IMG/VR virus record: IMGVR_UViG_3300048080_000657
Reading direction: 5' to 3' (one strand)
Source of the DNA: a virus
Length of the DNA: 64,000 nucleotides
The notes beneath the pieces were generated by a model, which was given only the letters and a program-made list of their open reading frames with translations, had not been told where the DNA came from and ran no database searches. This document shows, in pieces, positions 8,323 through 64,000 of this stretch (positions are counted from its first letter, which is position 1; the number at the start of each line of letters is the position of its first letter). The position numbers and the translations under genes are program-made.

Positions 8323-8363
8323 GACGAGACGAAATAGTCACGAAAGACTCGAAAGGTGACACG

Positions 8364-9146
8364 ATGAACCTGAACGACTACGACCTGATCTTGGTGAACA
8401 CGAGCGGAGGCAAAGACTCCTCCGTAGCGGCGTTCGTCGTCACCCGCATGGCCGAGGAGTGGGACGTCAAGAGCCGCATCGTCCTAGTCCACGCCACCTT
8501 CGCCGAGGAATGGGCTGGGACCGTAGACCTCGTTCGGAAGCAGGCCGAGCAACTTGCGCTCCCGCTCGTTGTCGTGGAGCGCGGCGAAGACCTCCTCAAA
8601 TACGTGGAGCGCCGTGGGATGTGGCCCTCCTCCCAGCAAAGGTACTGCACAAGCGACTTCAAGCGGGCGCCCATCGACAAGGTCATCACGGCCCGAGCGC
8701 CCGGACTCGACAAGCCCGCAAAGGTTCTCAACGTCATGGGAATACGCGCCGATGAATCGCCCGCCAGGGCGAAGCGCCAGGCTTTCAAGCATGACGAGCG
8801 CCGCACGAACGGCCGCCGCATCGTGGACGAGTGGCTCCCCATCTTCAGCATGACTCTGGAGCGCGTGTGGGCCATCATCAAGGCGAACGGCATCCCGGTT
8901 CATCCGGCCTACGCCCTAGGAATGCCGCGCCTCTCGTGTGTCTTCTGCATCTTCGCCCCGAAGGCTGCGCTCGTCTTGGCTGGCAAGCACAACCCTGAAC
9001 TCCTCCGGCGGTACGCCGAGGTCGAGAAGAAGATCGGCCATCAGTTTCGCGGCGAGCCCGGAAAGAAGGGCGGCCTGTCGATGGCCGAGGTGTTAGATGC
9101 CGTAGAAGCTGGGGCATCCGGACCTGTTCCAGACTGGAAAATGTGA
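8364..9146 (+). CDS. phosphoadenosine-phosphosulfate reductase family protein
   Basis: NTSGGKDS, RYCTSDFK, GIRADES..R, RLSCVFCI. Confidence 0.88.
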   Translation: MNLNDYDLILVNTSGGKDSSVAAFVVTRMAEEWDVKSRIVLVHATFAEEWAGTVDLVRKQAEQLALPLVVVERGEDLLKYVERRGMWPSSQQRYCTSDFKRAPIDKVITARAPGLDKPAKVLNVMGIRADESPARAKRQAFKHDERRTNGRRIVDEWLPIFSMTLERVWAIIKANGIPVHPAYALGMPRLSCVFCIFAPKAALVLAGKHNPELLRRYAEVEKKIGHQFRGEPGKKGGLSMAEVLDAVEAGASGPVPDWKM

Positions 9147-9361
9147 ATCACGAACGGAGGACTCGATGAGTCACAAAAGGATGCAGTGCCTGAGATGCTG
9201 GTCCCCTTGCGCTGATAACATGGCGCACTGCCTCAGGTGTCAGTTGGAGCGGGCGAGGCATGATCGTGCGCAAGAGATCGCTGACCGTCTCACAGATGCT
9301 CGGCTGCGCAGGCTCGCGATGGCAACGCGCAGCGAAGAGCCCCTCGTATAGCGGAGGACAC

Positions 9362-9619
9362 ATGACGGACTCAAGGAAGAAGGCGGCGACCAAGCGGGTA
9401 CGCAGCGCAGAGCACTGTCTCTACCAGGCTGAGGAACTGCTGGAGAAGGCGCAGGCCCATCTCAGCGCAATCCTCATCGGCCTGAACCAGAACTACGCCA
9501 AGATCGGCAAGCTCCGGGAACACGTGAGGGTACAGATGTACGACCTGGAGCGTTGCCGGGAGACCGGCCTGTGTGAGATGGACGAGACGCTCCCGTTGAA
9601 GTCAGGAGCATCGCGATGA
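9362..9619 (+). CDS. hypothetical coiled-coil protein
   Basis: SD GGAGG before ATG 9362. Confidence 0.55.
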   Translation: MTDSRKKAATKRVRSAEHCLYQAEELLEKAQAHLSAILIGLNQNYAKIGKLREHVRVQMYDLERCRETGLCEMDETLPLKSGASR

Positions 9620-9900
9620 TGTGGCCGTTCAGCATTCTTGTTCTGGGCCGCCGCTACCTGACGCGCATCGGCGTGGCGGGCTTGCGCACAGCGATGGGCA
9701 TGGCACCGATGAGGCGGCCGGAGCCCGGGGAGACCATGGATGAATACAAGGCCTACATGAGCCTCGTCCGCAGAGAGACGCTCCAGGCGGCGCCGCCGGA
9801 CCTAGCGGCGAGCTTCCTCGATGGCCGTCCGTCCGGCCCGAAGGAATGGAGTCCCCGCGGGCACCGAAAACAAGATCAATGCGATGACACCCGACGGTAA
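9616..9900 (+). CDS. hypothetical protein
   Basis: Overlapping start; C-terminal GPKEWSPR is shared with the 6637..6909 product. Confidence 0.5.
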   Translation: MMWPFSILVLGRRYLTRIGVAGLRTAMGMAPMRRPEPGETMDEYKAYMSLVRRETLQAAPPDLAASFLDGRPSGPKEWSPRGHRKQDQCDDTRR

Positions 9901-10009
9901 CAGTGTCACCGCATTAGAACACAGCCTCTCCTATGGCGATCAGCCGAACCACGAAATCCGCGCGGAAACGAAGCCTGTGGCCTGTCACCGCATTGGCCCG
10001 TGATTTGCA
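9878..10009 (+). promoter_or_regulatory. second sigma54-like promoter with paired TGTCACCGCATT boxes
   Basis: TGGC-N7-TTGCA at 9994-10009; boxes at 9904 and 9983 (79 bp apart); inverted copy AATGCGATGACAC at 9878. Confidence 0.65.
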
Positions 10010-10346
10010 GGTATGTACCCCATGATCTGCGGACATTGCCACGCGCACCGGGCCCGTGCCTTTCGGGAGATTCGTTGCCACTGGACGACGTGCCGTTCGG
10101 ACGCGCGCTGGGCACGCGTGGTCGTTCTCCGTAGGGCTGGCAGCCAGGACGAGGCGGACCGCCTGGTCCGGCGCATCATGGGCATCCAAGGACCGCCCAT
10201 GACGGAGGAGAAGAAGGCGGAGCTGAGAGCGTGGGGTGAAGCTCACAAGGACGAGATCCGCGAGAAGCGGCGCATGAGGATCCTCACGCGCAGGAGAACG
10301 TTGGAGCTGCTCGCTGCGGGAACCAGAAGACGTTAAGGAGGGAGCG

Positions 10347-20933: not shown

Positions 20934-21738
20934 GGAATGCACCTAATGGTCAAAAGGTGAGGAGAATTGATGATCGACTGGAAGCGCATCGAGAAGACAA
21001 CCGTATCGGTCGGCGACCTCATCAGGATCGCCCGCGATCTGTGCGACGGAGACGGGGACAACGTAGAGTACCAGCGGGCATTGGCAGAACTCGTCTGCGA
21101 TGCGGCCGGAATCCCGATGGCGCTGAAGGCCGAGGTGGGCCACCGCATGGGCCTGAAGTGCAGCGTCGAGTAGATCACACTTTTGATCAAAGGTGAGGTA
21201 TGAACTGTGCTCGGTGCGAAACATTAGAAGGCCAGTTGAACGAAGCCAAGAGACTCCTTTCCGAAGCCCAGCATTGGATTGGTGTTGATCCCACTTACGA
21301 GGAGTCGGTAGCTATGGATGCGCTGGGTAAGAAAATAGCAGGGTTCCTGGGGAAAAGTGAAGAGCACCACGATCACCAAAGTGATCAAAGGTGAGGTCCG
21401 GATCATGATAAAAGCAAAACACAGGCATCGGTGGACTCCCGCTCACTTCATGAGCACCGTGGGATGGGTCAAGGCTTGCCGCGCCAGGGAGTGCCCCACC
21501 CCAATGAAGGCCGTTCAACCGAATCAGGTACGCCTTTCCAACGCAGCACGCACGCAATAGACCATTGGTGAGACGATGAAGAAAAAGGTCCTAGACCGCT
21601 GGGTGACGAGGTTTCTGAAACGGCTGGCCAAAGAAGAGGCCAAGATGTGGAAAGGCTGGCTTCAGAGATGGACGTCGACTGTTCAGGAAGATCTGATGGG
21701 CTATCGACGGGATCTAGGCCGCACGAAATGAATTATTG

Positions 21739-22041
21739 ATGAGGCAGAACCAGGTGGATGCTCAAATGAACAACGCCAAGGTGCGAGTCCCTCAGGGTCC
21801 GAAGGGCCCAAAGGCGATGCTGGCCCTCGTCGAGAAGTGGAAGGACATTCCCGAAGGAACCCCCGTCATCGTCACGAAGGACTTCGGCGAGCAGTTCCAT
21901 ACCAAGACCCGCTCGGCGCCCTGGCTGCTGGGAAGCAGCTCCCGCGACCCTGGGCACACCGCGGTCATCATGGTCGAAGGCATCAGCGGCGGCTACGGCC
22001 TGTGGCGGGTCCGCCTGGATTCTGTGGAACGCACCAAATAA
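21739..22041 (+). CDS. cassette hypothetical protein
   Basis: ATG supplied by the upstream site; TAA lies in the core of the next site. Confidence 0.65.
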   Translation: MRQNQVDAQMNNAKVRVPQGPKGPKAMLALVEKWKDIPEGTPVIVTKDFGEQFHTKTRSAPWLLGSSSRDPGHTAVIMVEGISGGYGLWRVRLDSVERTK

Positions 22042-22280
22042 ACAAAAGGTGAGCGATGACCCAAGAGACGGTAGGCCCCGGGCCGGCCTTCAATGATGAG
22101 CTTAGCCGACTCGCGAAGACATGGGCGCCGCCTGGCAGGGCGAGCGATTTCTTGATGGACGTCACCAAGGTGGTGATATCTGCCATCCAGGCCGGACGGG
22201 CGGCCGCTCAGGGGGCCCAAGGAATCGTGGTCTGCGGGAAGTGCGGCAAGGTCGTTCACCAATGCGAACATTGGTGAGGC

Positions 22281-22559
22281 ATGAAGACCATCGGATACCG
22301 GCTGCAGGAGGATTTGTACCACAAAGGATGGGAAGCGCGGCAGACCATCGAGATGCCGTCCGGGGCGAAGATCCTGTCCGTCACCGTGCAGGCCGGGGTT
22401 CCGACGGTTTGGGCGCTGGTCAATCCAGAGGCTCCGACGGAAGCACGATACCTCTATATCACCGAAGGCGGGGCCGAACTGGGCGACGAGTTCGTCGGAC
22501 GGCGTTTCATCGGAACCCTTCCGGCCTTCAGGGACTCCGCGATGCACATATGGGAATAG
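22281..22559 (+). CDS. conserved phage hypothetical protein
   Basis: MKTI..Y.L...MP.GAKILSV.VQ.G.P.VWALV pattern common in phage small proteins. Confidence 0.65.
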   Translation: MKTIGYRLQEDLYHKGWEARQTIEMPSGAKILSVTVQAGVPTVWALVNPEAPTEARYLYITEGGAELGDEFVGRRFIGTLPAFRDSAMHIWE

Positions 22560-22610
22560 GTGATGTGAGGGTCTCGTGCGACCCGCACAGAATTATAGAA
22601 AGGTGAGGAG

Positions 22611-23315: not shown

Positions 23316-23516
23316 GCAAAAGGTGAGGCAATGACACCGAAACAGTGGGCCAAAGAACTAGGTCTGGCACCGACGGCTTGGCAGACCATCGGAAATTACC
23401 AGTACGAGTTCGACGAGAACGGCTACACGGGATGGTACCGCTGCGTGGGCGGGAGGCTCGCGGATGGCCGGTGGCCCCAGTGGCGCATGGAATAGTCAAA
23501 AGGTGAGGAGCGCAAG

Positions 23517-23894: not shown

Positions 23895-23919
23895 ATAGCC
23901 AAAAGGTGAGGAGGAAGAC

Positions 23920-24246: not shown

Positions 24247-24265
24247 CCAAAAGGTGAGGTGAGCG

Positions 24266-32142: not shown

Positions 32143-32186
32143 ATCGGAGACAGATTACCAATCAATCAAAAGGTGAGGCTGAGCGC

Positions 32187-42444: not shown

Positions 42445-42519
42445 TCACGAATCAACTAAAAGGTGAGGACGGCACGGAAGAGTGCCAGTTCATGTACAGG
42501 CAGATAAAGGAGAACGCCC

Positions 42520-43587: not shown

Positions 43588-43633
43588 GACGCGCCAGATC
43601 ACGAATCTACTAAAAGGTGAGGAATAGCGCGCT

Positions 43634-45367: not shown

Positions 45368-45405
45368 GCCGAGTTTCAGATCACCAATCCTCTGTTTAGT
45401 GAGCT

Positions 45406-49058: not shown

Positions 49059-49166
49059 ATGGAAGTCCTGTTTGTAATGGCCGGATTCGGGCTTGGTTTT
49101 CTCGTCGCGCTCTGCCTTCATGAGCGGTCCGGATGCGGAGAAGCACACCAATCTGCCGAAAGGTGA
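49059..49166 (+). CDS. 35-aa membrane peptide (paralog of 41945..42073)
   Basis: MEVLFVMAGFGLGFLVALCL; stop supplied by site 49145. Confidence 0.65.
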   Translation: MEVLFVMAGFGLGFLVALCLHERSGCGEAHQSAER

Positions 49167-50310
49167 GCCGGAAACATGGACAAGCCTTGCGAGAAGTGCG
49201 GTCACCCAGGGCCGTTCATCCCGAAGAGCATTCCCGATCCCGATCCGCGGAAGGGGATGAAGGTCTGCTGTACCGCTTGCGGAAAGGACATCACCTACGA
49301 CACCCATCAATGGAGGCACGAGCCCGATGGCCGCTGGGTCTGTTGCGATTGTATGGCTTCGACGAAAGCGCTCCGCGATATGACGCACAAATCCGCTGAA
49401 AGGTGAGGAGAATGAGCACTCGCGAGGAAAGACGGGCAGAGTTCGATGCGGCACTGAAAGCAGCCTTGAACTTGAGGCCCCTCTATGCTGCCATGGATGA
49501 GGAAGACCGGGTCGCACTTGTCAGGCGCTATCCGGATCCCGATCGATCACTCGGCGCGCTCTTCAAGGGCCCGCTGATCCAGTTGTTCGATCGGGCCGAT
49601 GACCTCCGGGCCCTCGATCACCAATCCGCAGAAAGGTGAGGCCCATGAAAGCGATCTTGAGTCCGGAAGAGAGGGCGGCTGGGTATTGCGATTGTTGCAG
49701 GAATTGCACACCCGAGAGGATGTGCCCAGCCTGCAAACAGATCGCTGAGGAGATCCGGGGAGCGCTTCAAGACGACCGGAAGCGCATCATCGCCGCTTTC
49801 GAGACGGCATGGGCTGCCCTAGGTGACAAGGATTGGGCTTGGAAAGAATCCCTGCTCTTCAAGATCAGGACGGGCCCTGACGAGACGCGTCAATCCGTAG
49901 AAAGGTGAGCTGGAAGTGGAACGAAGGACGATCCGCGGCGATCGCTCACTGGCGCCCTACTGGCACAGGAGCCAGACATTGAAGAACACGGAGCGGCTCT
50001 ATTGCCCCTGTGGATGCTTGGTCTACGACGGGCCGAAGCCGAACTTCGCGCGGATCAGCTGCCCGAAGTGTAAGAGGGTGACGGATGTCCCCAGGAATCC
50101 GCGCCAATCCGCCAAAAGGTGAGGGATTATGAACACGCCCATGGAAAAACGGATTCTAGAGAGCGTTGACCGCATCGACAAGCATGCCCAAGCGATCAGG
50201 TCTTTGCTCTTTGAAATCAGGAGGCTGTCCGTCGAGAAAGGCAACTGCAAGGATATCTGGCAGTTGGCCAACGAAGCTCTGAAGCACATTTCAGCCGAAA
50301 GGTGAGCGCG

Positions 50311-50736: not shown

Positions 50737-52039
50737 TCCGACGCCGATGAAGGATCTCCTATTGGATTTGGGGCTTGCCTTCATCTTCGGATGGGGTGTG
50801 TGCTGGATCGCGACCTTCAACCTGGAGACCGGGAATGTGCGCCGCTGGCTGGGAGGCCACGTCCATCCCGGCTATTTCCGGTATAACAAAAAGGAGAGAG
50901 GCTCATGAAAACCGCGCAGAAGGCCATCCGTCACAGTAAGGCCGTCGGCAAGAAAAAGTCCGTTCTGTCCGAGCTCAAGCAACGGATCGACTCCTTGGAA
51001 AGAAGACTCTCCAGGGAGTGCGAGCGAATCGAGGCATGCCGTATCGCGATCGAAAGGGCCGGCCTGATGCCCTATATGCCGACGGCCGCACGACCGATGA
51101 AGGCCAAGCTTGTCAAGATTGTTGAGGAGATGAGGACAGGATTCCCGAGTTCCCCTGGTCGGCATCGCGAAAGACCATGAAACTGATCCGCTGGTTCCTG
51201 TGCAAGCTGGACATCCGGCACCGCCTCACCGAGGCTTGGCTGCCGCTGAAAGGCAGCGGATTGACGCGGGAGACAGCGGCTCTATGGGGCAGCAAGGTGG
51301 ATAGAGAGAGTGTGTCCTACTGCGTGTGCCGTGACTGTGGACAGATCATCGCCCCCTTCGAGGCTGCCTCTCGGAAGTGGCACGTGTCTACCAAAAGATG
51401 AGGAGCGCGACATGCTGACATGCATCCGTTGCACCCGCTGCAGCAAGGCCGGCGTATTCGACCTCGAGCTCGTCTTCGAGCCGAAGCACGAACGGTGCGG
51501 TTCCTGCGGACATGAGGCGGGGCACGCTTGGCACTACCGCTTTTGCACCTTCGGATGTTTTCTCGAGTGGATGAAGGAAGAGAAGGTCGCCGAGAATGGG
51601 TTGCCCTGTCAGGATTGCACAGTTCAACTGGGAATCACCACGCCCACTGGGTTCGCCGGCGGATTCAAGGAGAACGGGATCTGTAGGACCTGCGACGGCA
51701 AGAAGGCCGTTCGGGGTCGCCTCGTTGCGGTCGATCCGCTCGAGGCTGGGCCGCCCGGAAGCATAGCACACCAATAATCCAAAAGGTGAGGTCCGAATCA
51801 TGGCATACGCGCAAGGGATGAGGCTGGCCTATCTCTGTTTGGACGGCTGGGAGGGTCGTACAGAGGAACGGGTGGGAATTATCGGCGAGACGCCGAAGCG
51901 GTATCGAATCGTGTGCGACCGGCGAATCAAGTTGGCGGGTGCCCAGCGGTGGCTTGAGATAGGGAAGGATGTGCTGGTGCCGAAGTCGGCGGTTCGATTT
52001 GTGATCATCGGACCCAGCGAATCACGAAAAGCCTGAAAG

Positions 52040-52435
52040 GTGAGTGCCCTGCAAATGGTTGAGGCGGTCGATCAGGCGCGTGTCGAGGCCGTCCTGGACA
52101 TCCTGAGATCCTACAGGTTCCGCTACAGCACCGAGAAGGATCTCCAGAATGGCATTGCCAAGGCCCTGAAGGGACGGGACGTACTATTCGAGCGCGAAAA
52201 GGAGATCGGATCGAAGGGGGAGGCCATCGACTTCTTGGTCTGCGGAGGAATCGGCATCGAGGTGAAGATCAAGGGAGGTCCCTCTGACGTGGCCCGGCAA
52301 CTCATCGGATACGCCGAGTGCCAGGAGATCCGAACGGTCATCCTCGTGACTGGCCGGGCCCGACTCGGCAGGCTCCCTCCTACGCTCCAAGGCAAACCCG
52401 TCCATGTCGTGTCCCTCTGGGGGACCTTCCTGTGA
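52040..52435 (+). CDS. PD-(D/E)xK nuclease-like protein
   Basis: EKDLQ...IDFLV.GGIGIEVK...QL.GYA. Confidence 0.65.
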   Translation: MSALQMVEAVDQARVEAVLDILRSYRFRYSTEKDLQNGIAKALKGRDVLFEREKEIGSKGEAIDFLVCGGIGIEVKIKGGPSDVARQLIGYAECQEIRTVILVTGRARLGRLPPTLQGKPVHVVSLWGTFL

Positions 52436-54150
52436 AGCGCGTCTACGGGAAGGTCTGGCTCAAGGGTGGCCACTGGTATATCCAGGGCGAGCCGCATCTT
52501 CTCCTCCGGTTGAAAAGGATTTTCGCGCGTATTTGGGCTGGCCAGTATGGCGTGGTGACGCTCAAAGATACCGATGAGATTCGTCGGGAGATCGTGTGGC
52601 TCCTCGAACGGTATGCGATGACGGTTTCGCGCAAGGACCGTAAGGCCCTCGACGACGGCGCGCGTCGTCATGTCGAGAAGCTCGTCCGCCTGGATCGCCT
52701 GATCGACAGGAAATACGTCGGCCGGGTGTACAAGATGGCGATTCCTGCCAGGGAGTATCAGAAGCAGGCCGCTGAAATGGTCCTTGAGAATGGCTACCTC
52801 CTCTTGGCCGATGATCTCGGGACTGGTAAGACCGTCGGGGCCTTAGCGGTTCTGACCCGGAAAGCCACGTTGCCTGCGGTCGTCGTGACGCTCTCAGGGA
52901 CGATGCCCAGGCAGTGGAAAGACATGACGGCGGCCTTCCTGCCCAAACTCTCGGTCCATATTGTCAAGAAGGGGACACCTTACGAGTTGCCGAAGACCGA
53001 TGGGCGCGGTCCAGACCTGGTCGTTCTCAACTACCACAAGCTGAGTGGATGGGCGGAAACTCTCGCGGCCTACGTGAAGACGGTGATCTTTGATGAATGC
53101 CAGGAACTGCGGCGCCGACAGTCTCAGAAGTACCAAGCGGCTGAGTACGTTGCGCGCCGGGCCCGCTGGACCATGGGTCTGAGCGCCACCCCCATCTTCA
53201 ACCTCGGAGGCGAGATCTGGAACGTGGTGAACGTTCTCCGCGAGGATGCTCTCGGGACCTACGAGGAGTTCCTCCGGGAATGGTGCTACGGAGAGCGCGA
53301 TCACCGGAAGACACCGGCGGTCAAGGATCCTAAGGCTCTGGGCTCGCATCTTCGGGCGGAGCACATCATGCTCCGCCGGACACGAAAGGACCTCGGGCGC
53401 GAACTCCCGCCCCTGACGAAGATTCCACAGTACGTCGAGAGCGATGAGGCCGCCATGGACGGGATCAAGGACTCGGCGGCCGAGCTCGCCCGGATCATCC
53501 TCTCCAACGAAAAGATAGAGGGATTTGAACGCCTTCGGGCTTCTGAGGAGTTCGACCAGGTTCTCCGTCAAGCGACCGGGGTCGCGAAAGCTCCGTATGT
53601 TGCGGACTTCATCCGGCTTCTGGTGGAGGGGGATGATGAGCCGGTCCTCGTCTTCGCCTGGCACCGCGCGGTCTATGATATCCTTCTTTCCAAGCTCAGC
53701 AATCTTGGGCCGGTCATGTTCACCGGCTCCGAAACCACAGCGCAGAAGCACGAATCGCTCGGTAAATTCCTGAGGCGAGAGTCCAGGGTGATTCTCATGT
53801 CACTCCGTGCCGGCCAGGGAATGGACGGGCTCCAGAAGGTCTGCCGAACCGTCGTCTTTGCCGAGCTCGACTGGTCGCCAGCTGTCCACGATCAATGTAC
53901 TGGACGAGTCTTCCGGGACGGCCAGGAGGATCCCGTGACGGCGATCTTCTGCGTGGCCGAGAGAGGATCGGATCCGAGCATTGCGGAGACCCTTGGTGTC
54001 AAGACCGCCCAGATCGAAGGCATCCGGGATCCCGAAGGGGCGCTCCTCGAGGAGCTTCAGACGGATCCCGGAAGGATTCGCGCGCTCGCGCAGCGCTATA
54101 TGGAGAAGATCGGCAGGAAGGCTCCGACCATAGAAGCTCAAAAGGCCTGA
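52432..54150 (+). CDS. SNF2-family helicase
   Basis: LLADDLGTGKT, VIFDECQ, SATP, QCTGRVFRDGQ. Confidence 0.9.
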   Translation: MKRVYGKVWLKGGHWYIQGEPHLLLRLKRIFARIWAGQYGVVTLKDTDEIRREIVWLLERYAMTVSRKDRKALDDGARRHVEKLVRLDRLIDRKYVGRVYKMAIPAREYQKQAAEMVLENGYLLLADDLGTGKTVGALAVLTRKATLPAVVVTLSGTMPRQWKDMTAAFLPKLSVHIVKKGTPYELPKTDGRGPDLVVLNYHKLSGWAETLAAYVKTVIFDECQELRRRQSQKYQAAEYVARRARWTMGLSATPIFNLGGEIWNVVNVLREDALGTYEEFLREWCYGERDHRKTPAVKDPKALGSHLRAEHIMLRRTRKDLGRELPPLTKIPQYVESDEAAMDGIKDSAAELARIILSNEKIEGFERLRASEEFDQVLRQATGVAKAPYVADFIRLLVEGDDEPVLVFAWHRAVYDILLSKLSNLGPVMFTGSETTAQKHESLGKFLRRESRVILMSLRAGQGMDGLQKVCRTVVFAELDWSPAVHDQCTGRVFRDGQEDPVTAIFCVAERGSDPSIAETLGVKTAQIEGIRDPEGALLEELQTDPGRIRALAQRYMEKIGRKAPTIEAQKA

Positions 54151-54791
54151 GAGGTGATCTATGCGAACACCCATTACCACAGAGTTGCAACCGATCATCG
54201 ATCTTCCGGAGAGAGCGCCGAAGACCCCTCTCGACGCCTGGGTCGTCGTCGCCTACTGCTCCACGCAGGATCACTGGAAGATATTCAAGGAGCAATGGAT
54301 CAGCCAGGAGGTGGCGTGTCGGTTCGCCGAGAAACTCCACCCGATCTGGCAGCATCGGAAGATCTTTCGGCTACAGGTGGCTGAGGTGGTCGCCGCGCCC
54401 AGCACGCCTCCATAGAATGGAGCTTGCACGAAAGACCAGAAAGGCGACATGCAAGTAAACATCGCAACGGTGCATCGACTCCGCGGAGAGCTCCGTGCCG
54501 TGTTGCCCGAGCTGCAGCCGGGCCACATGGTGAGCAATGAGACGCTTTCGGCCTGTTTCTCGCTCTTGAACGAGGCCGTCATGCTCCGGCTGATTCAGGA
54601 GATTCAGGCGATGCGCAGAAGCGAGGTAGGGGTCGGCGAGGCCGCGGCTCTCATACAGGAGGTATCCAAGACGCTCTCGGATGCAATGGTCTCTGTAGTT
54701 CTGAAGCATGTGCCAGACGCGACGACGTTCTACACTTTCAGGCCGCCTCAGGAATAGGGATGATGAGCCACGATCACGGAATGATCTTTCG

Positions 54792-55277
54792 ATGAAACCG
54801 ATCTACCAATTAACCAATTCCGATTGCATGAGAGCGTGCGTTGCTTCGATCTTCGAACTTCCGCTCAAACGGGTGCCGTTCTTCGGTGAATCCGCGATCA
54901 AGGATATCAAGAACCGCAACGCCATGACTCACAAGGAGCGCAGCCGGGCGGCGCTCCAGCAGGCTGACGACTTCGCCGCGTGGCTGAAGGCGCATGGGCT
55001 CGACGTCGAGTACATCTCCGATCCAGACTGGGCGATCAAGCGCGGCGCGAAGGCTGCGCGATTGCCTTGGGGGCTCTGCATCGGAGGTGGAAGATCGCCC
55101 CGCGGGCCGTGGGATCATGCGACCGTCTGGGACGCCGCCGACTGGACAAATCGGAAGATGGTCCACGATCCCCACCCCTCGGGCGCGGGCCTGAAAGGGA
55201 AGCCGCACACGTTCACTTGCTTTCTGCTCGTGGACCCTGCGAAGTTCCGACGGGCTCTGTGTGATGGAAAAGTCTGA
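54792..55277 (+). CDS. hypothetical protein, possible papain-like Cys/His fold
   Basis: Q..NSDCMRACVASI; WDHATV; MVHDP. Confidence 0.55.
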   Translation: MKPIYQLTNSDCMRACVASIFELPLKRVPFFGESAIKDIKNRNAMTHKERSRAALQQADDFAAWLKAHGLDVEYISDPDWAIKRGAKAARLPWGLCIGGGRSPRGPWDHATVWDAADWTNRKMVHDPHPSGAGLKGKPHTFTCFLLVDPAKFRRALCDGKV

Positions 55278-58034
55278 ATTGACGAAAGGTGAAGCGACGG
55301 ATGCTGGTCCTCACGCGGTGCCCCGGCTAGGCGCTGTAGCCCGTGGACGTGGGCGTGCCCCTCTCAGGTGTGCGCCTCGTTGGGCAAGCCGCAGGGCACC
55401 GCGTAGGGATCAGCACGAATCGGACGAAAGGTGCGTACTGTGCGTGAAAGGAGTACGGTGACCTATCCTGAGTTGATCTGCCTGAGCTACGGGCACGACT
55501 GGTATCGAGTCGCGACCTCGGACACTTGCGAGCCCGCGGCCTACGCGGGTACGACGCTGTGCAAGCGCTGCGGCACCGCGCTACCTAGGACGGACGAGGG
55601 CCTGTACGCGATACTGGAAGGGAGAAGCCCAACGTGCAGACCTTGAACAGTCGCCTTTCCAGTGCCGAGCTGTGCCGGCTGAATGGCTGGGGGCCGGGAA
55701 CCCGACTCGTCGGCGACGAAGGCTGCGGGCCGACCGTCATCGAGATCACGGCCGTCGGGCAGGTTTCCATCTTGGCGAGGATGATCTCCCACAAGGGAGA
55801 ACCAGCAGACGGTTTCGAGAGCCTCTGGGGACTGGACAACCGTGATTGGCAGCCGCACGAATCCGACATAAGATGATCCGCGTAAACCTAGACCATCAGG
55901 TAGCGGCCTTCCTGGAGATGCGAATGCTCGCGTGGGAGATTGGCATCGCGTCCTTTATCCGAGAAGGATTGAGCCGCGAGGAGGCCGTACGAAAGTTCGC
56001 CGAGGTCTGGCAGCGGGCATCGCTCGCGCGCGAGAGGCGCTGGAAACCTCACAGAACTGGCGAAAGGTGAGGCCTGTGAAGAAATACATCTGTTGGCTTT
56101 TCGGGCATGCCAAACCGGTCTATCACGAATCCGGCGCCTTCTGGTGGTGTCCCCGCTGCGATAGGGCACTCGGAATCAACCAAAGACTGTGGACGCCGGA
56201 GGCCATGATTGCGGACGCTAACCGAAGAAGGCTCGGAGAATACGACTCCGGAGATACTCACAATAGAGGCGACCCGTGAAGACCCTCCGAACGTTCGGGA
56301 CCATTCGGCCAGGCGGCCAAGAGGTCGGCCTACGCGAGGACCTCGACGGCCAAGAGCGACTCGCGTGCCTCTGGATTCAGGCGGTCTCGCGCAGGCAGGG
56401 GACTGTGGGGGCTTGGCTAAGCACCGCCGACGCGAAAGTCCTGATGGGTTGGCTGAGAGCGTTCCTGCAGAAGCACAGAAGAGGCGAAAGGTGATCTATG
56501 AAGCATCCGGGAGGATACCAGCCGGACCCTTCGAAGAATCCGGCACCCGTGCCGCCGGCGGTGGGCTCAGCGATCCAGCCGCCGCCCGTGCTCGGACTCA
56601 CCTGTGGCTGCGGAGGTGTCATGAGGGTCTATTGGAGACCCAACGGAACGCGAGGAATCCAGTGCGAACAATGTTATGAGGGCGGACGTGGTCGACCGCC
56701 AGCTCACGAAAGAAGCAAAAGGTGAGGTCGATGGAATACAGCGACTACTGGATCTACCCAGGCGAACGGCGCCCCGTCGTGGTCAAGGCCAAGACCGAAG
56801 AGGAGGCCGAAGAGCTTGTCAGGAAGAGCCCGGAGTACGACGGCTTCGGAAGCCGAGTGTATCGCGTCGAAACGTTCGGCGAGCTGTGCGCACGAGGCGA
56901 AGCGCCATAGGCGTGAAAGGTGAGCGAGATAGGTAAGATTGGAGGAGCATGGCCATGAATCCTACGGATCAGATGGTGGTCGAGATCTTCAAGGGGGAGG
57001 CCGATCAGAACCACGAGTCCCTATGGCGGGTCGATGTCCGGCACACGGCCGCGGAACTCGATGGCCAGGCCATCGAGCCCGAGGATCAGGACTACAATGT
57101 CCTCGCCTTCACACCGGCGGGAGCGATCGCGAAGGTGATGGGAATCCTCACCCATCCCTGGCAGGCGTCCGGGAAAAGCAAAGACAAGAACCCGCTTCGG
57201 AATGTCCTCCCCATGCGGATCGAGATTCGTTCTGTCCGATGGATCGCCCAGGTGCACAAGTAGATCACCAAAGGCATGAAAGGTGAGGTCCGATTCATGA
57301 CATCTGCGACAGCGGGCGAGGAGATTTGCGCGAACGACTATTGCAAGCATCGGTACGATGCCCACAATTTGAGCGAGGCGGGCTCTGGCTGCATGGCGAA
57401 GGACTGGAACGCGGCAGATGCGGATACCTTTTGTCGGTGCCGTAGATTCAAGAGGCACACTTCCAGCGAGAGAAGGTCCACCGATGCCTAAGTGTGGATT
57501 CAGGGAATGCCGTCGTCCAGCTACCGGCGATGGTTCGCTTCCGTGGTCATGCGAGGAGTGCGCCCAAGAGTTGAATCCGGAGATTGAACGCTTGGCAGAT
57601 CAGCTCAACAAGGCCATAGAAGATGACATCCAGAAGAATTAAGACCGACCTATCCAACGATCAGCGGATCACCAAAGGCTAGAAAGGTGAGCCGTAGCTT
57701 ATGACGCCGCAGGACTTCGACCCGAAACGCGACCTGAAGACCGAGTTGGACGAGGAAGGGCTCGGGCGCAGGGTAACGTGTATGGCCTGCTGTCAGGTGA
57801 TCTTCAATCTCGGGCCCAACCCTTCCGAGCCTGAGCGGCTGAAGGAGGGGAAGAACTTGGCCCTTCACCTGGAGCTTTTCCACAACATGAGAGCTTTCTA
57901 CGGGCGGTGCAGGGATGCGTCGTGCCGGAGGTTCCATCTTTCGGCATTCGAGAAAGGCAAACTCCCGCCGGAATTTGAGGGAGTTGGCAATCCGCCAGTG
58001 TAGGATCACCAAAGGTTAGTAAGGTGAGGGATTG

Positions 58035-58559
58035 ATGCAGGCTGAAGAGAAGGCTCAGCTCGGCGCGGCCGCCGCTGAGATTCTGAAGATGCTCCAGACC
58101 TGGGGCTTCGACACGAACCAGTCCTGTCGAACGCTTCTCGGCGTGGCTGCGGTGATCATCGCCGAGGGATGCAGGGGAGATAAGGTTTGTCTCGATGATA
58201 CTCTTGACCGTTTCTGCAATACGATCAGGGAAATGGCCGAGGATGCGTTCGGGAAGCCCAAGAACGTCACCGCCTCGAAGATGGCCTTTGATACCCACAC
58301 CAAAGAAAGCCGCGATCTTGTGGAGCGGATGCTCAAGGAAGAGGAGGAAGGCGGCTATACCCCGATGATGGTAAGATTCCCCGTCAAGAAGGGCTGCCGG
58401 GCCTGTTCGGGTCAGACGGGGATGTTCCGGACGAGCGTCGTCAGGAAGAGGCTCTCGGACCGTTCGGTGACCCTCTGGGCAATCGTCACGCTTTGCGAAC
58501 AGTGCCTTGGGAACGCGGATGCCAAGGCGAAGTTGCTCGGGATGCTCACGGAAGGATAG
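58035..58559 (+). CDS. cassette hypothetical protein
   Basis: Between sites 58006 and 58546; TAG lies in the site core. Confidence 0.65.
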   Translation: MQAEEKAQLGAAAAEILKMLQTWGFDTNQSCRTLLGVAAVIIAEGCRGDKVCLDDTLDRFCNTIREMAEDAFGKPKNVTASKMAFDTHTKESRDLVERMLKEEEEGGYTPMMVRFPVKKGCRACSGQTGMFRTSVVRKRLSDRSVTLWAIVTLCEQCLGNADAKAKLLGMLTEG

Positions 58560-58563
58560 AAAG

Positions 58564-59562
58564 GTGAGCAAGAAGATCCTACTCCTCCAGCTCGACGGGA
58601 AGATCCCCAACATCGCCCTCATGAGGATCGCGGCACACCACCGCGCCCTGGGCGACGCCGTCGAGTTCCGCTGGGGGAGGACGGTCGCCTCGGCGTCACC
58701 CGATCTCTTCGACCGGCCGGATCGGGTCTATGCCTCGCTCATCTTCGAGCGGACGAAGCCCGTCGCGGAGCGGCTCCTACAGACGTATCCGGACTCCGTG
58801 GTGGGCGGAACCGGCTGGGACGTGGCCTCCTCCCTCGAGGCGGCCGGCATCACGACGAAGGCACAGGACTACTCGGTCTATCCCGCGTGGCGCCAGTCCA
58901 TCGGCTTCACGCAACGGGGTTGCCGACTCAAGTGCCCATTCTGCGTAGTCCCTACAAAGGAAGGCCCGGTCCGAGAGGAACAGACGATTGCCGAACTCTG
59001 GCGCGGGGAGCCCTGGCCCCGGGAGATCATCCTCCTCGACAACGACTTCTTCGGACAGGCCTCCTGGCCCAAGCGGATCGAGGAGCTACGCGCCGGCCGT
59101 TTCAAGGTGAGCTTCAACCAAGGAATCAACGCCCGCTTCCTCACCGATGAGACCGCAGCCGCCGTCGCCGGCGTCGACTACCGGGACGACCAGATGAAGG
59201 ATCGCCGGATCTACACGGCATGGGACAACAGGAAGGACGAGGGGCGCCTGTTCGCCGGCCTCGAGGCGCTCGTGCGCCACGGGGTCAGGCCCGACGACAT
59301 CATGGTCTACATGCTCCTTGGGTACTGGCCATGGTCGGATCTCGAGGATTGGGAGCACCGGCGCCGCCGGCTGCGCGAGTTCGGCTGCCGGCCCTATCCG
59401 ATGCCCTACGAGAGGACCCCCCAGGCTGTTGGATTTCAACGGTGGGTGATCGGCGCGTATGATAAGAGGATCGGCTGGCCGGAATGGGAGGCGGCGGGCT
59501 ACCGGCCTGAGCGCGTGGGCCTGCATGCGGAAACGCCCCTGTTCGAGGTCATCGAAGAGTAG
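58564..59562 (+). CDS. radical SAM protein
   Basis: PNIALM; TQRGCRLKCPFCVVP (CxxxCxxC); LLDNDF; FNQG; GTG start supplied by site 58546. Confidence 0.85.
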   Translation: MSKKILLLQLDGKIPNIALMRIAAHHRALGDAVEFRWGRTVASASPDLFDRPDRVYASLIFERTKPVAERLLQTYPDSVVGGTGWDVASSLEAAGITTKAQDYSVYPAWRQSIGFTQRGCRLKCPFCVVPTKEGPVREEQTIAELWRGEPWPREIILLDNDFFGQASWPKRIEELRAGRFKVSFNQGINARFLTDETAAAVAGVDYRDDQMKDRRIYTAWDNRKDEGRLFAGLEALVRHGVRPDDIMVYMLLGYWPWSDLEDWEHRRRRLREFGCRPYPMPYERTPQAVGFQRWVIGAYDKRIGWPEWEAAGYRPERVGLHAETPLFEVIEE

Positions 59563-60017
59563 AAAGATGAGCATGAAGAAGCGCCAGCGCTTCAAGTGTC
59601 ACGGATGTGACCGTCGCAAGGCCTTGAAGTACCTTCACCATCATCGGGACGAGAGGCCCTATTGTGTCGATTGTTGGAAGAGGATGTACTAGCACACTCG
59701 AGCAGAAAGGTGAGGGTATGAAGATTCTGGCGATCGACAATCTCGTATTCAAGCTGCCGGACACGTTCAAGGGCAGCTTCAGTGATGCTCTTCGTGCTCT
59801 GGCTCGCTATCACGACGGAAGCCCAACAGCGATAAGGCAGAAGAAGCAGCCAGGCGGTCGGCTGACAAGAAAAACGTGGGATGCCTTTCTGAGTGTTGTC
59901 GACAAGGGTGGTTGTCTGGCCTGCATCGCGTCACTTCAGAAGTGGACGGGAAAGACGTGGCGGAAGTTCCCACTGGAGAAGGGATGGAAGAAGTTGAAGT
60001 CACGGAAGAGCTGAAAG

Positions 60018-60422
60018 ATGATCAAGAGACTTTCTGATAGGGTATGGCAGGCCGATGAGGCGGACGCCAGGAAATTGTGTGAGGGGCATTCCGAACGTTG
60101 GCTTACCGAAGGTTTTAAGGCGGTGCTTTGTCCGGCATTCAACGTCAGGATTCCTTATCACCCGCGGCTCGCGGCCATGATCCTGCCCGTATGGGATGAG
60201 ACGGACGCCCCGTCCGAGATGTTCGATTGCGCTGCCTATTTCCATAAGGCATTCGGCCCGACATTGGTTCATTGTCATGGAGGTTTGAACAGATCCTCAG
60301 CCTTCGCGGCCGCACTCCTTGTGGCCGACGGGATGTTTGTCGAGAAGGCTCTTGAATGTGTCAATGCCACACCCAATCCGGAGCTCCTTAGATCACTCCG
60401 GCGATGGGTGCAATCACGATAG
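60018..60422 (+). CDS. dual-specificity/Cys-phosphatase-like protein
   Basis: LVHCHGGLNRSS (HCxxGxxRS). Confidence 0.8.
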   Translation: MIKRLSDRVWQADEADARKLCEGHSERWLTEGFKAVLCPAFNVRIPYHPRLAAMILPVWDETDAPSEMFDCAAYFHKAFGPTLVHCHGGLNRSSAFAAALLVADGMFVEKALECVNATPNPELLRSLRRWVQSR

Positions 60423-60441
60423 ATCACCAAAGAGCACAAAG

Positions 60442-60921
60442 ATGAGTGCCCGAAGCTATAAGCTGCTTGATGGGACCAGCGTCCCGTTGAAGGTTCTCTC
60501 CAAGCGAGAGAAGGGCTTCATCCGCTCGCTTTGGGTGATGGCCTCTGATGGCGTCGACTACTTCGAGCTGTACCGCATCGCTTGCGGACCTAGGTCACCC
60601 GCTCTTCAAGGAAGATCGCGCGTAGACAAAGAGCTTGTCCAAACTCCCGTCTATCGGATAGCGAGAGACGTCGTAACCCGGACAGGGATTCGTAAAGGAC
60701 TGATTCTAGGCTCCGGCAAAGAGCCTGAAGTGGTTTCTTCATTGGCTCAGCTTCTGCAGCCGCTCAGCGTTCCACAGGCGGCGAGCCTGATCGGGATCTC
60801 TCGTATAGCTGTCTATAAGGCGATCCAGAAGGGCCACCTTCCAGTTGTGAAAGTAGGGAGCGTGCTGATCGTTGAACGAGGGGACGCCGAGGCTTACAAG
60901 AGATCCAGGCGGATCACATAA
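60442..60921 (+). CDS. protein with C-terminal excisionase/MerR-like HTH
   Basis: LSVPQAASLIGISRIAVYKAIQKGHLP..KVG. Confidence 0.75.
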   Translation: MSARSYKLLDGTSVPLKVLSKREKGFIRSLWVMASDGVDYFELYRIACGPRSPALQGRSRVDKELVQTPVYRIARDVVTRTGIRKGLILGSGKEPEVVSSLAQLLQPLSVPQAASLIGISRIAVYKAIQKGHLPVVKVGSVLIVERGDAEAYKRSRRIT

Positions 60922-61553
60922 GAGCGGAAAGGTGATGTGGGGAAGAACTTCCAGTGGGAGCGCCTCCAGAACATGAGAATTTATCTCGAGGAGAAAGGCC
61001 ACCGCTTCAGTGGGTTTCCGATGCAGTGCCAGAAGTGCGGCATCCTACTCGGGGTTCTTTCGGCTATGCTGGAGAAGGCGCCGGCCTGTGTGCCGCCGGC
61101 GCAGGATCACCAAAGGGCGGATCGGTGCGCGTATGACGCCAGAAGAGGAAAAGATCAGACGTGAGATGGCGGAGGTGAAAACCTTTACGCTTAATAGATG
61201 TCCGGGCTGCGGCGAGTTGCTTGGGTCTGGCTGGCAAACACGCAACGAAGCGATCCTTGAGTTCGCAAGGCACACACTTGGGTGTAAGGGCGTAAAAATG
61301 CTTGGAGCGCGCACCAAATCCTAGAAAGATGAGGAAAGGAAACAGCATGATGACGACGAATCAGGCGATCAAGGAAGCCACACGAGGCGTGCTCTCGAGC
61401 CGGGAATACCGCGCGCAGGTGATGGCAATCCTCGAAACTCGGCTTGAGACTGCGATCACCGAAGGTGACGACGAGGGGGCTTACGCTTATGCCGCAGGAA
61501 TCGAGGCTCTCAAGATCGAACCGCGCACCGAATCGTAGAAAGGTGATGTGGCC

Positions 61554-61811
61554 ATGACCTGCGACCAGTGCGGCTCCCCAATGGCGAACGTGGGGCGCCA
61601 GATCCAGCGGGGACACCGGGATGGCTGGATGGACGGCTGGGTGTGCCCGACGCGCCGCTGCCCAGGCTATGGGACCACCGATTTTCAACATTCCGTGACC
61701 CGCCGCTGGCCCGGGATGACGTTGATGTCGGAGGTACCGCTCCACGCAATGATTCTAGGTGCCGTGAAGTTCAGAGACGCATCGAAGGCAAGGATGAGTT
61801 TAAGGAGATAG
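61554..61811 (+). CDS. Zn-finger cassette protein (paralog of 62272..62499)
   Basis: CDQCG..MANVGRQI..GH...WMDGWVCP.RRCPGYGTTD. Confidence 0.75.
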   Translation: MTCDQCGSPMANVGRQIQRGHRDGWMDGWVCPTRRCPGYGTTDFQHSVTRRWPGMTLMSEVPLHAMILGAVKFRDASKARMSLRR

Positions 61812-62271
61812 ACATGGATAGGCGCATCTTCATGGCCGCGACCGCGGCCGCCCTCGTGGGCACGCTTCCCGTGGAGGCGAAGTCCGGGCGGGAGTTCCTG
61901 GGCAGCGCGGAGATCACGGGCGCGAAGGCCTGGAGGGTGGACGGCGTCCCGGGGCGCTCGAGCTACGCCGTCAGGGAGCAGGACGGCAGGCAGTACGTCG
62001 ACGTCTACGGCGATCCCGGCGTGCGCGGCCGGGTGAGGACGACGATCCGGTACACCTAGCGGCTCGCGATGATTCTCCAGCGTCTGGGGCTCTTGGTGTG
62101 TGTCGCCATAGCCGGCCTCAATGCGTGGTTCCGGAAGGGGACAGGTGAGGCGGCGCTGGACACGCCCGAGGGGCGGTGGATCCTCTTCGGAGTCATAGTC
62201 GCGCTCGCAGTGCTGCTCTGGGGCTTGGGCCGCGAGCGCGGCTCACCGAAGACGTGAAAGGTGAGGCGAGT

Positions 62272-62499
62272 ATGATGTGCGACCAGTGCGGCTTGGGGAT
62301 GGCGAACGTGGGGCGCCAGATCAAGCCAGGCCATCCAGAGATCTGGATGGACGGATGGGTCTGCCCGAAGCGCCGCTGCCCAGGCTACGGGACCACCGAC
62401 CACCGGGATTCCGTGAGCCGTTGGCCTGGGATGACGCTGATGCCGGAGGCGCCGCTCCACGCGATGATCCGAGGAGCGCTGAAGTTCAGGGACGCGTAG
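62272..62499 (+). CDS. Zn-finger cassette protein (paralog of 61554..61811)
   Basis: See paralog. Confidence 0.75.
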   Translation: MMCDQCGLGMANVGRQIKPGHPEIWMDGWVCPKRRCPGYGTTDHRDSVSRWPGMTLMPEAPLHAMIRGALKFRDA

Positions 62500-63175
62500 A
62501 AGACGTAAAAGGTGAGGTCAGCAATTGGGCCACGTTGCGGGAAACCGTGATGCCGCCCCGTGAAGAGGGGCGGTGGTTGGCAGCGAACCCACACTGCCTA
62601 ACGTCGGACCTGCGGGCGAGACGCGAGATTAGTGCCGCCAAGCGGCCACGGTTTCCCGCAATAGGGCACTGAAGAGGTAAAAGGTGAGGTCATGAACGAT
62701 CCAAGGAAACAAAAGTGCGTGGAGTGCGAGAAGAAACTCCATGGGGGCCCGAGCTGCACCAAGCACGGTATGGCCGGATTGGCGACCTTGGCAGAGGCCA
62801 TCTTGAAGGTGGCCAGGAATACTCGCCGAAGAGGCAACTGGTGAGCACGATGGTTCATTACATGAACGTCATCACACCGGGCCCGCTTATCATCGTGCGG
62901 ACCCCCTACCCGCTACCCCGTTGGAGGCTCGTACTTAAAGCCCTGACGCCGGTCGTGCAATCGCATGGTTATAAGCAGAAGGACATCAGCGCGATCGAGG
63001 GTTTGCTCCCATATCCGGACGATCCATGGAGCCCCGAGGAGACACAGTTCGCTTCCCGGATCGAGAAGGCATTTGCGGGAGACCCCGAGGTTCTACCCCG
63101 CTTTTGGCTGTACGATTGGAAGGCCGGGGAGTTCGTGGTGGCGCGAGAGCCTCATAGAAGAGATAAAAGGTGAGG

Positions 63176-63204
63176 TTGACAATACTGCCCATTCACTGTA
63201 GGCT
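63176..63204 (+). promoter_or_regulatory. sigma70-type promoter of the hicBA cassette
   Basis: TTGACA-17-TAGGCT immediately after site 63152. Confidence 0.6.
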
Positions 63205-63340
63205 TACTCTTGCTAGAACAAGACGGAAGGAGACCCACATAAACTCTCTCGGAAGCCGCCTTCGTCCCGACGGCGTCTTGTTCTAGCAGACATTCGTCCG
63301 ACGGGCGGGCGGCCTCCAGGTGAGTTCAAGGAGACCGTGT

Positions 63341-63553
63341 ATGACGTATACCGTGGTTGTCGACTACGATTCCGAAGAGCGTGTCTTTAACGTTTCGGTT
63401 CCTGCGCTTCCCGGATGTTTCGCCTGGGGCAAGACCAAGAGCCAGGCGCTGAGCAGGATTAAGGAGGTCATGCGCACTTACTTGGATGCACTCGTCGATC
63501 TGGGGCAGTCCATACCAGAGGAGGTCGACGTCGAGCGGGTCACGATCTCGTGA
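63341..63553 (+). CDS. hicB: HicB-like antitoxin
   Basis: YTVVVDYD.E...FNVSVPALPGCFAWGKT..QAL..IKE. Confidence 0.85.
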   Translation: MTYTVVVDYDSEERVFNVSVPALPGCFAWGKTKSQALSRIKEVMRTYLDALVDLGQSIPEEVDVERVTIS

Positions 63554-63771
63554 AGCCAAACCCGTCACGTCCAAAGGAAGTCGAAGCGGTAGTCTTGCGC
63601 ATGCGTTTCGTATTCATCCGTGAAGGCAAAGGAGCCCACCGCATCCATGCCCATGAGGATGGCAGGATGACGTCGATATCTTTTCATCCTGGAGATGTGC
63701 CTGCCGGAACGCTCCGAAAGATCATCTCCCAAATAGGCCTGACGGTAGAAGACTTCAACGAGATGGTCTGA
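63550..63771 (+). CDS. hicA: HicA-like mRNA interferase toxin
   Basis: REGKGAHRI.AH.DGR..SISFH..DVPAGTLRKII.Q.GL. Confidence 0.82.
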   Translation: MKPNPSRPKEVEAVVLRMRFVFIREGKGAHRIHAHEDGRMTSISFHPGDVPAGTLRKIISQIGLTVEDFNEMV

Positions 63772-64000
63772 CATACCCATGAGTCACGAAAGAAATAAAA
63801 GGTGAGGAATCTTCTCGCGTTCGTCATGCTGCGGTGTCGCTGCTGCGGAATGAAGATCCCTCACAAAGGGAGCTATGCTGAGATGTTGCGTGAGGCGATC
63901 CGGCGTGGATGGGTATTGCGTGGCCAGGATTACCTCTGTGAACGCTGCAAGCACTCGCCTAAGGTATAAAAGATGAATGGGGCCCAGCGCCGCCCCAAGC

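Follow-up and report, generated by a model that had tools for sequence, protein, structure and literature searches.

Introduction

Phage genomes are rich in small genes with a fast turnover, many of which are likely to be host-takeover or anti-defence factors, and the gain and loss of these genes is only partly understood. The attC sites of integrons are imperfect hairpins of 57–141 bp with extrahelical bases and RYYYAAC/GTTRRRY cores, and they require IntI and attI. Among phages, Cluster K mycobacteriophages have start-associated sequences (SAS) of 13 bp, which contain a Shine-Dalgarno (SD) sequence and lie 3–7 nt before the mostly ATG starts of non-structural genes, all in one orientation; 93 sites are present across six Cluster K genomes, roughly 15 per genome (Pope et al. 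2011, PMC3203893). The promoter early stem-loop (PeSL) elements of T4-type phages are located in hyperplastic regions and accompany a modular shuffling that has been attributed to homologous recombination, and mini-circles also arise (Arbiol et al. 2010, PMC2839356; Comeau et al. 2014, PMC4122927). Here we describe a 24–26-nt motif that recurs at the gene junctions of a 64,000-nt stretch of viral DNA (IMG/VR virus record IMGVR_UViG_3300048080_000657). This stretch, referred to as the window, is part of a contig of ~216 kb and defined the scope of the analysis. Nearly every small gene of the fast-turnover kind across more than 40 kb of the window was framed by this one uniform junction.

The explanation that we favour, with a probability of about 0.55, is that the junction is a start-associated regulatory cassette, composed of an SD sequence and a box at a fixed distance upstream, which doubles as a short-homology recombination seam. 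The motif was found in an SD-like position, stood apart from the promoters, was restricted to one clade and coincided with the breakpoints of exchanged cassettes. An earlier reading of the window, made from its letters alone (the sequence-only reading), had proposed an integron-like array of gene cassettes that it did not recognise as a described system.

Comparison with described systems

The junction has much in common with SAS and the extended SAS (ESAS). In both, a short asymmetric motif with an SD core lies a few nucleotides before mostly ATG starts, in one orientation, and precedes non-structural genes of different families. The junction, like SAS/ESAS, sometimes spans the upstream stop codon, is clade-specific, has conserved positions that are unable to pair with 16S rRNA and includes an upstream associated element without support for an RNA hairpin; a role in translation is unproven for SAS too (PMC3203893). 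However, the sequences are unrelated (SAS GGGATAGGAGCCC compared to TCACsAA-N7-AAAGGTGAGG here), which makes the junction an analogue of SAS and not a member. About 95 junction sites were found in 45 kb, a number to be set against the roughly 15 SAS of a genome. The upstream element here is a 7-nt box at a strictly fixed distance; the ESAS, by comparison, consists of an inverted repeat of 17 bp whose spacer varies. Cassette exchange is not described at SAS, and the hosts are unrelated.

With PeSL the junction shares a conserved cassette that extends from the stop codon of one gene to the SD and start of the next, precedes ORFans in hyperplastic regions and is present in about 50 or more copies per genome. 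In both systems, the indels and replacements between close relatives break within the cassette. PeSL carries a sigma-70 promoter and a terminator stem-loop, whereas the junction has neither; its promoters are separate and sparse, and there is no stable stem. The junction is also shorter (24–26 nt), denser and far more uniform, and its spacer is regionally conserved.

The integron-like logic of the array is real. As in an integron, co-oriented and mostly promoterless single-gene cassettes are read from an upstream promoter, have conserved boundaries and are gained, lost and duplicated cassette by cassette. Unlike attC, the junction has no hairpin and no GTTRRRY core, and it carries a ribosome-binding site (RBS). 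A further resemblance is to the stoperators of Cluster A mycobacteriophages, the targets of L5 gp71-type repressors, which are also asymmetric short sites present in many copies at gene junctions, in one orientation relative to transcription (PMC9283540). Stoperators differ in being 13–14 bp long, in numbering about 25–35 per genome, in being bound by an identified repressor and in not being SD sequences (PMC9283540).

From these comparisons, the junction appears to combine traits of SAS/ESAS and PeSL while being a member of neither, and the view that it is not a described system was too strong, as these are close analogues. What is distinctive is the extreme density and uniformity of the junctions, the conserved slots with swapped contents and the spacer addresses.

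Structure and distribution of the junction motif

The pattern given in the sequence-only reading, applied strictly, matched the window 26 times, always on the + strand, compared to 0.01 matches expected. A position weight matrix (PWM) trained on 84 sites found 95 sites on the + strand and none on the − strand at a cut-off of at least 12 bits (about 0.4 in shuffles), and 101 and 4 respectively at a cut-off of at least 10 bits (about 0.6 in shuffles), which agrees with the original count of about 100 copies in one orientation. All 95–101 sites run in the same direction as the genes. Counts of the AAAAGGTGA type were lopsided between the strands, with the core AAAGGTGA present 80 times on the + strand and 3 times on the − strand. 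The consensus was (g/a)(a/c)[T/G]CAC-n-AA-[A/T]-nnnn-[C/T][G/A]-AAAGGTGA-GG, which can be summarised as a left box, TCACsAA, a 7-nt spacer and a right half, AAAGGTGAGG.

The distance between the halves was invariant. Of the [TG]CACnAA words followed by a right arm within 40 nt, 31 had it at offset 15 and none at offsets 13, 14, 16 or 17, so the fixed gap noticed earlier was borne out. The right arm was invariant. Among sites picked on AAGGTGA alone the left half still contained 0.6–1.1 bits per position, which shows that both halves are conserved and that conservation extends beyond the SD-like half.

Most of the 101 matches fell into four blocks, at 20,939–25,046 (14 matches), 32,155–39,336 (18), 40,412–50,284 (36) and 51,380–63,955 (29), referred to as arrays A to D (Table 1). 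Outside the blocks there were isolated matches at 8338, 12,734 and 13,738, in the last of which AAAGGAGA replaces AAAGGTGA, and a weak match at 27,777. Sites were dense at 20.9–25.1 kb and 32.2–64 kb, much as in the sequence-only reading, which had also listed these three isolated copies; four further copies proposed there, at 13,693, 17,238, 20,035 and 30,327, scored below 10 bits. The site at 8338 precedes the second of two adjacent PAPS-reductase-like genes, while the first (7387–8322) is preceded by a canonical AAGGAGG instead of a junction site. One copy in array B is a relic (32,811–32,834) that is now translated through as coding sequence of the gene at 32,596–32,886.

In a subset of sites, GGTGA and ATG were separated by an extended linker with the sequence GGTCCGAATC or one close to it (21,389–21,404, 35,231–35,246, 51,784–51,799 and 57,281–57,296, and 2615–2631 of the related contig L086). 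This shared linker suggests copying of whole junctions by descent and disfavours independent convergence.

The right half as a probable ribosome-binding site

At 64 of the 70 well-formed sites, a start codon opening an open reading frame (ORF) of at least 25 amino acids was located 0–15 nt (mostly 3–10 nt) 3′ of the motif, and 56 of these 64 start codons (88%) were ATG. The sites are therefore almost always at a gene junction, as had been claimed, and the window does contain a real, dense array in one orientation, whose single-gene units are delimited by a conserved site. Both AGGTGA and GAGG show complementarity to the 3′ tail of 16S rRNA, which is conserved. The genes that lack the motif, mostly at 1–20 kb and 25–32 kb, have (A)AGGAGG at the same distance from the start codon without a TCAC box. 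Because the right half stands 3–10 nt before start codons, where other genes of the window have AAGGAGG, AAAGGTGAGG is in all probability the SD sequence of the downstream gene; the phage would therefore have two RBS classes, AAAGGTGAGG at the genes with the motif and (A)AGGAGG at those without it. The sequence-only reading had treated the SD-like half as secondary, a view that does not fit a right arm lying at a normal SD distance from the start and thus pointing to a role in expression.

The upstream ORF ended inside the motif at 63 of 84 sites. The commonest positions of this stop were the TGA of GGTGA (18 sites) and then the last three bases of the spacer (9 sites).

Promoters and transcription of the arrays

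Promoter scans and alignment revealed seven sigma-70-like promoters on the + strand with the sequence CTTGAC...GTAnAC...GGTATACT, four of which (20,582, 32,113, 39,372 and 50,707) directly precede the four motif-rich blocks. The scans listed no −35/−10 pair at the junction sites except a weak 9-of-12 match at 48,080–48,109 that overlaps the site at 48,069, and they showed no enrichment of terminator-like sites. As separate sigma-70-like promoters stand at the heads of the arrays, the motif is not the promoter. With promoters sparse and confined to the array heads and with terminator-like sites not enriched, the arrays look like long polycistronic early operons. The −10 box of the promoters is overlapped by a conserved near-repeat, GTAnAC-N3-GTATAC, which may be an operator.

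Cassette exchange at the junction

The window was compared with related metagenomic contigs. In L093 one cassette of the window (32,591–32,819) is replaced by an unrelated segment, and the two sequences were 97% identical on either side of it (blastn, alignment, BLASTP). The left breakpoint was immediately 3′ of GGTGAGG in site 32,567 and the right breakpoint was within the relic site 32,811.

The junction at 44,034 was shared with L090, being identical over 26 nt (44,032–44,057), while the genes flanking it were unrelated between the two sequences except for a C-terminal tail encoded by the motif. In the window this site is 42 nt from the next ATG, and the gene that starts there has its own AAGGAGA. 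For the gene at 44,384, homologues were found on five contigs, and the similarity started at the upstream motif and stopped at the downstream motif. This gene (44,384–45,367) encodes a 327-amino-acid ORFan with a C-terminal CxC...VNFG domain that is duplicated internally (residues about 77–203 and 225–327); its relatives have a single copy of the domain and terminate in the motif-encoded tail.

A 953-bp segment (44,991–45,943) was absent from a co-occurring variant, as revealed by a read-layout joint between 44,990 and 45,944, and from L085, L086 and L089. It contains the duplicated C-terminal domain of 44,384–45,367, a relic site at 45,381 and an HNH homing-endonuclease gene (45,406–45,963), and its joint is 5 nt before site 45,949. 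The variant without the segment was the more abundant of the co-occurring pair. The HNH gene is free-standing, encodes a C-terminal helix-turn-helix (HTH), has a low G+C content at third codon positions (0.51) and matches Pfam HNH_3. Short read-layout joints were mostly contigs of other phages that share only the motif and were not counted as deletions.

Within the window, a cassette encoding a small membrane peptide was present twice, with few differing positions apart from one 4–5-nt indel. The two copies became identical within the right arm of the site upstream, and the identity lasted up to the right arm of the site downstream. All five breakpoint cases were compatible with a crossover in the invariant right arm, within motif positions −4 to +8. 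This zone is the longest stretch of identity, and by sequence the breakpoints would be explained equally well by homologous recombination and by a site-specific enzyme. The proposal that single genes are captured or shuffled at the site was upheld in that genes are replaced, gained or lost, and duplicated, with the breakpoints falling in the site or at its edge. A dedicated recombination chemistry was unsupported, with homologous recombination fitting equally.

Clear paralogues among the array genes were limited to two pairs, 22,611–23,315 with 36,193–36,858 (47% identity) and 61,554–61,811 with 62,272–62,499 (76% identity), in each of which both copies have their own junction site. Tandem gene duplication was considered as the source of the repeats and rejected, since it would have to be based on these two pairs and the one small duplicated cassette, and the flanks of the sites had no similarity to those of their neighbours.

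Distribution among relatives

An INPHARED nucleotide search with two 8-kb pieces of the window returned no match, and no motif arrays were found in IMG/VR or in 185k prokaryote genomes, where there were single chance matches only and one contig with two. Five relatives from other data sets bear the motif, L085, L089, L090 and L093 from JGI 3300048079 and L086 from SRR13378642. Together these contigs contained 53 sites on the + strand and none on the − strand in 21.8 kb, with the motif before almost every gene. Contigs of two sediment runs also included other phages that match the window at motif copies only.

The motif was not found in relatives with a helicase or ThyX identity of 72% or less (L052, L025, L026, L033, L087, L091, L092 and L214), which rely on ordinary SD sequences. 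These comprised SNF2-helicase relatives from IMG/VR and JGI metagenomes with up to 66% identity, and the ThyX/helicase relatives L091, L092 and L214 with 69–72% identity, the last from a 353-kb contig. Since the five relatives carry the motif and those at 72% identity or less do not, the junction element appears to be a young, clade-specific feature, and it seems to be conserved while gene content is not. Only 2 of the 24 genes of L085 and 1 of the 13 genes of L086 were shared with the window, and in L089 a homologue of the window gene at 21,817–22,041 adjoins the homologue of 44,384.

Interpretation and alternative explanations

According to the explanation favoured here, the junction would be a lineage-specific cassette in which the right half, AAAGGTGAGG, serves as the SD of the downstream gene. 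The left box TCACsAA, at its fixed 14-nt distance, would be part of the same unit and probably contacts a phage or host factor that acts on translation. The arrays would be transcribed as long polycistronic operons from the few separate sigma-70-like promoters, each small and mostly ORFan gene having its own copy of the junction, which would often also supply the stop codon of the previous gene. Crossovers, both within the genome and between co-infecting relatives, would fall in the junction and mostly in its invariant right arm, because it is the only sequence common to otherwise unrelated neighbours; single genes would therefore be swapped, lost, gained and duplicated as cassettes. We infer that the exchange proceeds by general short-homology recombination and not by a dedicated enzyme.

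The natural variants from several sediment samples, in which genes are swapped while the junctions and their spacer 'addresses' stay, make this a recombination seam that is unusually easy to map at nucleotide resolution. The junction arrays are a test case for whether short regulatory repeats alone, or a dedicated enzyme, drive cassette-like evolution. As a candidate translation signal specific to the phage, in a genome that would have two RBS classes, the uniform junction is also of interest for the way in which large phages direct the ribosomes of their hosts.

Several observations weigh against an RBS with incidental recombination. Neighbouring sites shared 6.1 of 10 variable positions compared to 4.24 expected, a value reached in none of 2000 shuffles. 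Only the 7-nt spacer showed this similarity (z 3.5–7.3 at positions −8 to −2), which was absent at the variable positions −15, −11, −10, +7 and +8 and in the flanks; the neighbouring genes were not paralogous. The regional spacer dialect was kept at the same slot in relatives with different genes, while positions −15 (T/G) and −11 (C/G/A) varied even between near-identical junctions (32,567 and L093 at 696; 44,352 and L090 at 695). Some fully intact sites (42,445, 44,034, 39,336 and 46,370) were 17–100 nt from the next start and, as the gene there has its own SD or promoter, these copies do not act as RBS. A plain RBS predicts neither the spacer dialects, nor the variation at −15 and −11, nor the distant intact sites, and an SD alone would need neither 24–26 conserved bases, nor an upstream box at a fixed distance, nor zero indels in about 150 copies. 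The dialects, the variation at −15 and −11 and the distant sites leave room for a site that a protein recognises and that functions at the level of DNA.

One form of such a function would be a dedicated, integron-like site-specific system, in which the two boxes are bound by a phage recombinase or annealase, strand exchange takes place within the right arm or beside it, and the 7-nt spacer serves as overlap or address. The bipartite site with its strictly fixed spacing would suit such an enzyme, as would the fit of all five breakpoint pairs to a crossover between −4 and +8, a spacer with regional conservation and slot specificity in contrast to the freely varying positions −15 and −11, intact sites without RBS use and the rapid rise and spread of the motif in one narrow clade. 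If this were true, the genome would resemble a rack: its slots would be conserved, their contents would change hands between co-infecting phages, the spacer address would confine exchange to a slot or neighbourhood, and the same site would give a stop, an RBS and a start context to any incoming gene. We nevertheless regard this as unlikely. The crossover zone is the longest invariant block, where homologous recombination also resolves, an SD role of the right arm is obvious, and PeSL yields the same pattern without a dedicated enzyme. A recombinase search of ~40 window proteins, which took in the ten longest ORFs and the majority of the array ORFs above 100 amino acids, found none, in agreement with the sequence-only reading, and none was present in the gene calls of the relatives' contigs; nor was an IntI tyrosine recombinase with attI and Pc found in either set, with 64 of the ~216 kb covered.

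The form of the site also fails to match known recombination sites. As had been stated from the sequence, it is not attC, since a site of 24–26 nt without long inverted repeats and with the boundary consensus AAAGGTGAGG has neither the long hairpin nor GTTRRRY. The core geometry of tyrosine recombinases, which had been invoked for it, did not hold up: a variable 7-nt centre does exist, but the inverted symmetry extends over 4–5 nt only, compared to the arms of about 9–13 bp around a 6–8-bp overlap in core sites of the dif/lox/FRT type. Complementarity between the arms was limited to TCAC(C)/(G)GTGA, beyond which sAAw faces AAAG. The fully complementary variants pointed out earlier do exist as rare exceptions, but as the right arm never varies no covariation between the arms, and hence no compensatory change, was observable. 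We know of no tyrosine or serine recombinase site that resembles the motif.

No more probable is a DNA operator at each junction for a phage regulator, which, in the manner of a stoperator, would silence or time the early arrays, with the overlap with the SD being secondary. The asymmetry, the single orientation relative to transcription, the many copies and the location at short junctions overlapping stop and start codons are features of stoperators (PMC9283540, PMC3203893). Two boxes at a fixed spacing fit recognition by a protein, and the arrays encode small ribbon-helix-helix- and HTH-like proteins (43,634–43,798 and 60,319–60,921). However, no known operator set comes near a density of 95 sites in 45 kb, the block with the strongest conservation coincides exactly with an SD and lies at SD distance, and no repressor was identified. 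All genes of the window are on one strand by the gene model, which makes orientation at the DNA level inseparable from orientation at the RNA level here.

An RNA element, either a UCACC/GGUGA hairpin that masks the SD and couples translation or a site for endoribonuclease processing or a RegA-like repressor, is less probable again. In its favour, the left box and the SD are complementary, the proportion of upstream ORFs ending inside the site is as coupling expects, and most variants of the left arm are transitions (A>G at −13, C>U at −12) after which G-U pairing would be retained. However, the putative stem is 3–5 bp with a loop of 12–14 nt, the probability of arm pairing averaged about 0.27 in 80-nt contexts and exceeded 0.5 at only 29% of sites, the common G at −15 is unable to pair, and an Rfam search with the motif returned no match. 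The full 5-bp stem was not associated with read-through of the left arm by the upstream ORF (6 of 19 compared to 9 of 63). The SD-masking hairpin with translational coupling was accordingly rejected, the pairing being weak and without a tie to the position of the upstream stop.

Finally, a per-gene promoter for a phage RNA polymerase or sigma factor, with an accidental likeness to an SD and nearly leaderless mRNAs, would account for two conserved boxes at a fixed spacing directly upstream of genes and has a precedent in the promoter that T4-type PeSL cassettes put before most ORFans, but it is very improbable given a distance to the start that varies over 0–15 nt and reaches 53 nt in some cases, a box spacing (15–17 nt start to start) that is neither sigma-70 nor extracytoplasmic function (ECF) geometry, the strong sigma-70-like promoters already at the array heads, the match of the right box to the anti-SD and the alternative RBS class that occupies the same place.

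Gene content of the window

The window sequence was found in a sediment metagenome run but in no RNA run, and one of its proteins was recorded on a 216,145-bp contig. Relatives of its SNF2 helicase reside on viral contigs of 142–353 kb. Family searches assigned the larger ORFs to phage-type families (Table 1), while the small array ORFs tested were mostly without a Pfam or PHROG family. The window is read as part of an uncultivated jumbo phage. It has ~59% G+C, and its GC and AT skews are both positive and steady throughout.

Table 1. Coordinates of the arrays, individual junction sites, exchanged segments, promoters and genes of the window.
Feature	Position (bp)	Strand	Evidence	Remarks
Array A, 14 sites	20939..25071	+	PWM	Mostly before small ORFan genes; dialect AATAGnCAAAAGG; promoter 20582-20610 just upstream
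Array B, 18 sites	32155..39361	+	PWM	Includes 33189 before ThyX and relic 32811; dialect ...GTCAAAAGG / ...TCGAAAGG; promoter 32113-32142 directly upstream
Array C, 36 sites	40412..50309	+	PWM	Dialect AATCCnCTAAAAGG / ...CTGAAAGG; promoter 39372-39401 upstream
Array D, 29 sites	51380..63980	+	PWM	Reaches window end; dialect AAAGnnnnGAAAGG / GAAGAGnTAAAAGG; promoter 50707-50736 upstream
Isolated site	8338..8361	+	Pattern scan, PWM	Before second PAPS-reductase-like gene (8364-9146)
Top-scoring copy	24236..24259	+	PWM, 35 bits	TCACCAAATAACCAAAAGGTGAGG; ATG at 24266, 6 nt further
Relic site	32811..32834	+	Left 9.2 bits, right −0.5 bits	GCACGAATTAGTCAAAAGAATACC; left box intact, SD lost
Replaced cassette	32591..32819	+	blastn, alignment, BLASTP	Unrelated to L093 721-901
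Shared junction	44034..44057	+	Alignment, BLASTP	Identical in L090 over 26 nt
953-bp segment	44991..45943	+	Read-layout joint 44990>45944, alignment	Absent from co-occurring variant and L085, L086, L089
Membrane-peptide cassette, duplicated	41936..42055 and about 49050-49170	+	Alignment	
Sigma-70-like promoters	6343-6371, 14831-14859, 16671-16699, 20582-20610, 32113-32142, 39372-39401, 50707-50736	+	Scans, alignment	
HerA/terminase-like ATPase	997-3834	+	Family match	With LAGLIDADG insert
PAPS-reductase-like proteins, two adjacent	7387-8322 and 8364-9146	+	Family match	
DNA methylase	15751-16674	+	Family match	
RNA ligases, two	25084-26121 and 39458-40417	+	Family match	
ThyX	33215-34369	+	Family match	Preceded by junction site 33189
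DUF4419 protein	42520-43587	+	Family match	
SNF2 helicase	52318-54150	+	Family match	
Radical-SAM protein	about 58519-59562	+	Family match	

The HerA/AAA ATPase is 945 amino acids long and has a LAGLIDADG domain at residues about 398–449, which suggests an intein or an inserted homing endonuclease. Intein domains were also present in several of the helicase relatives from the database.

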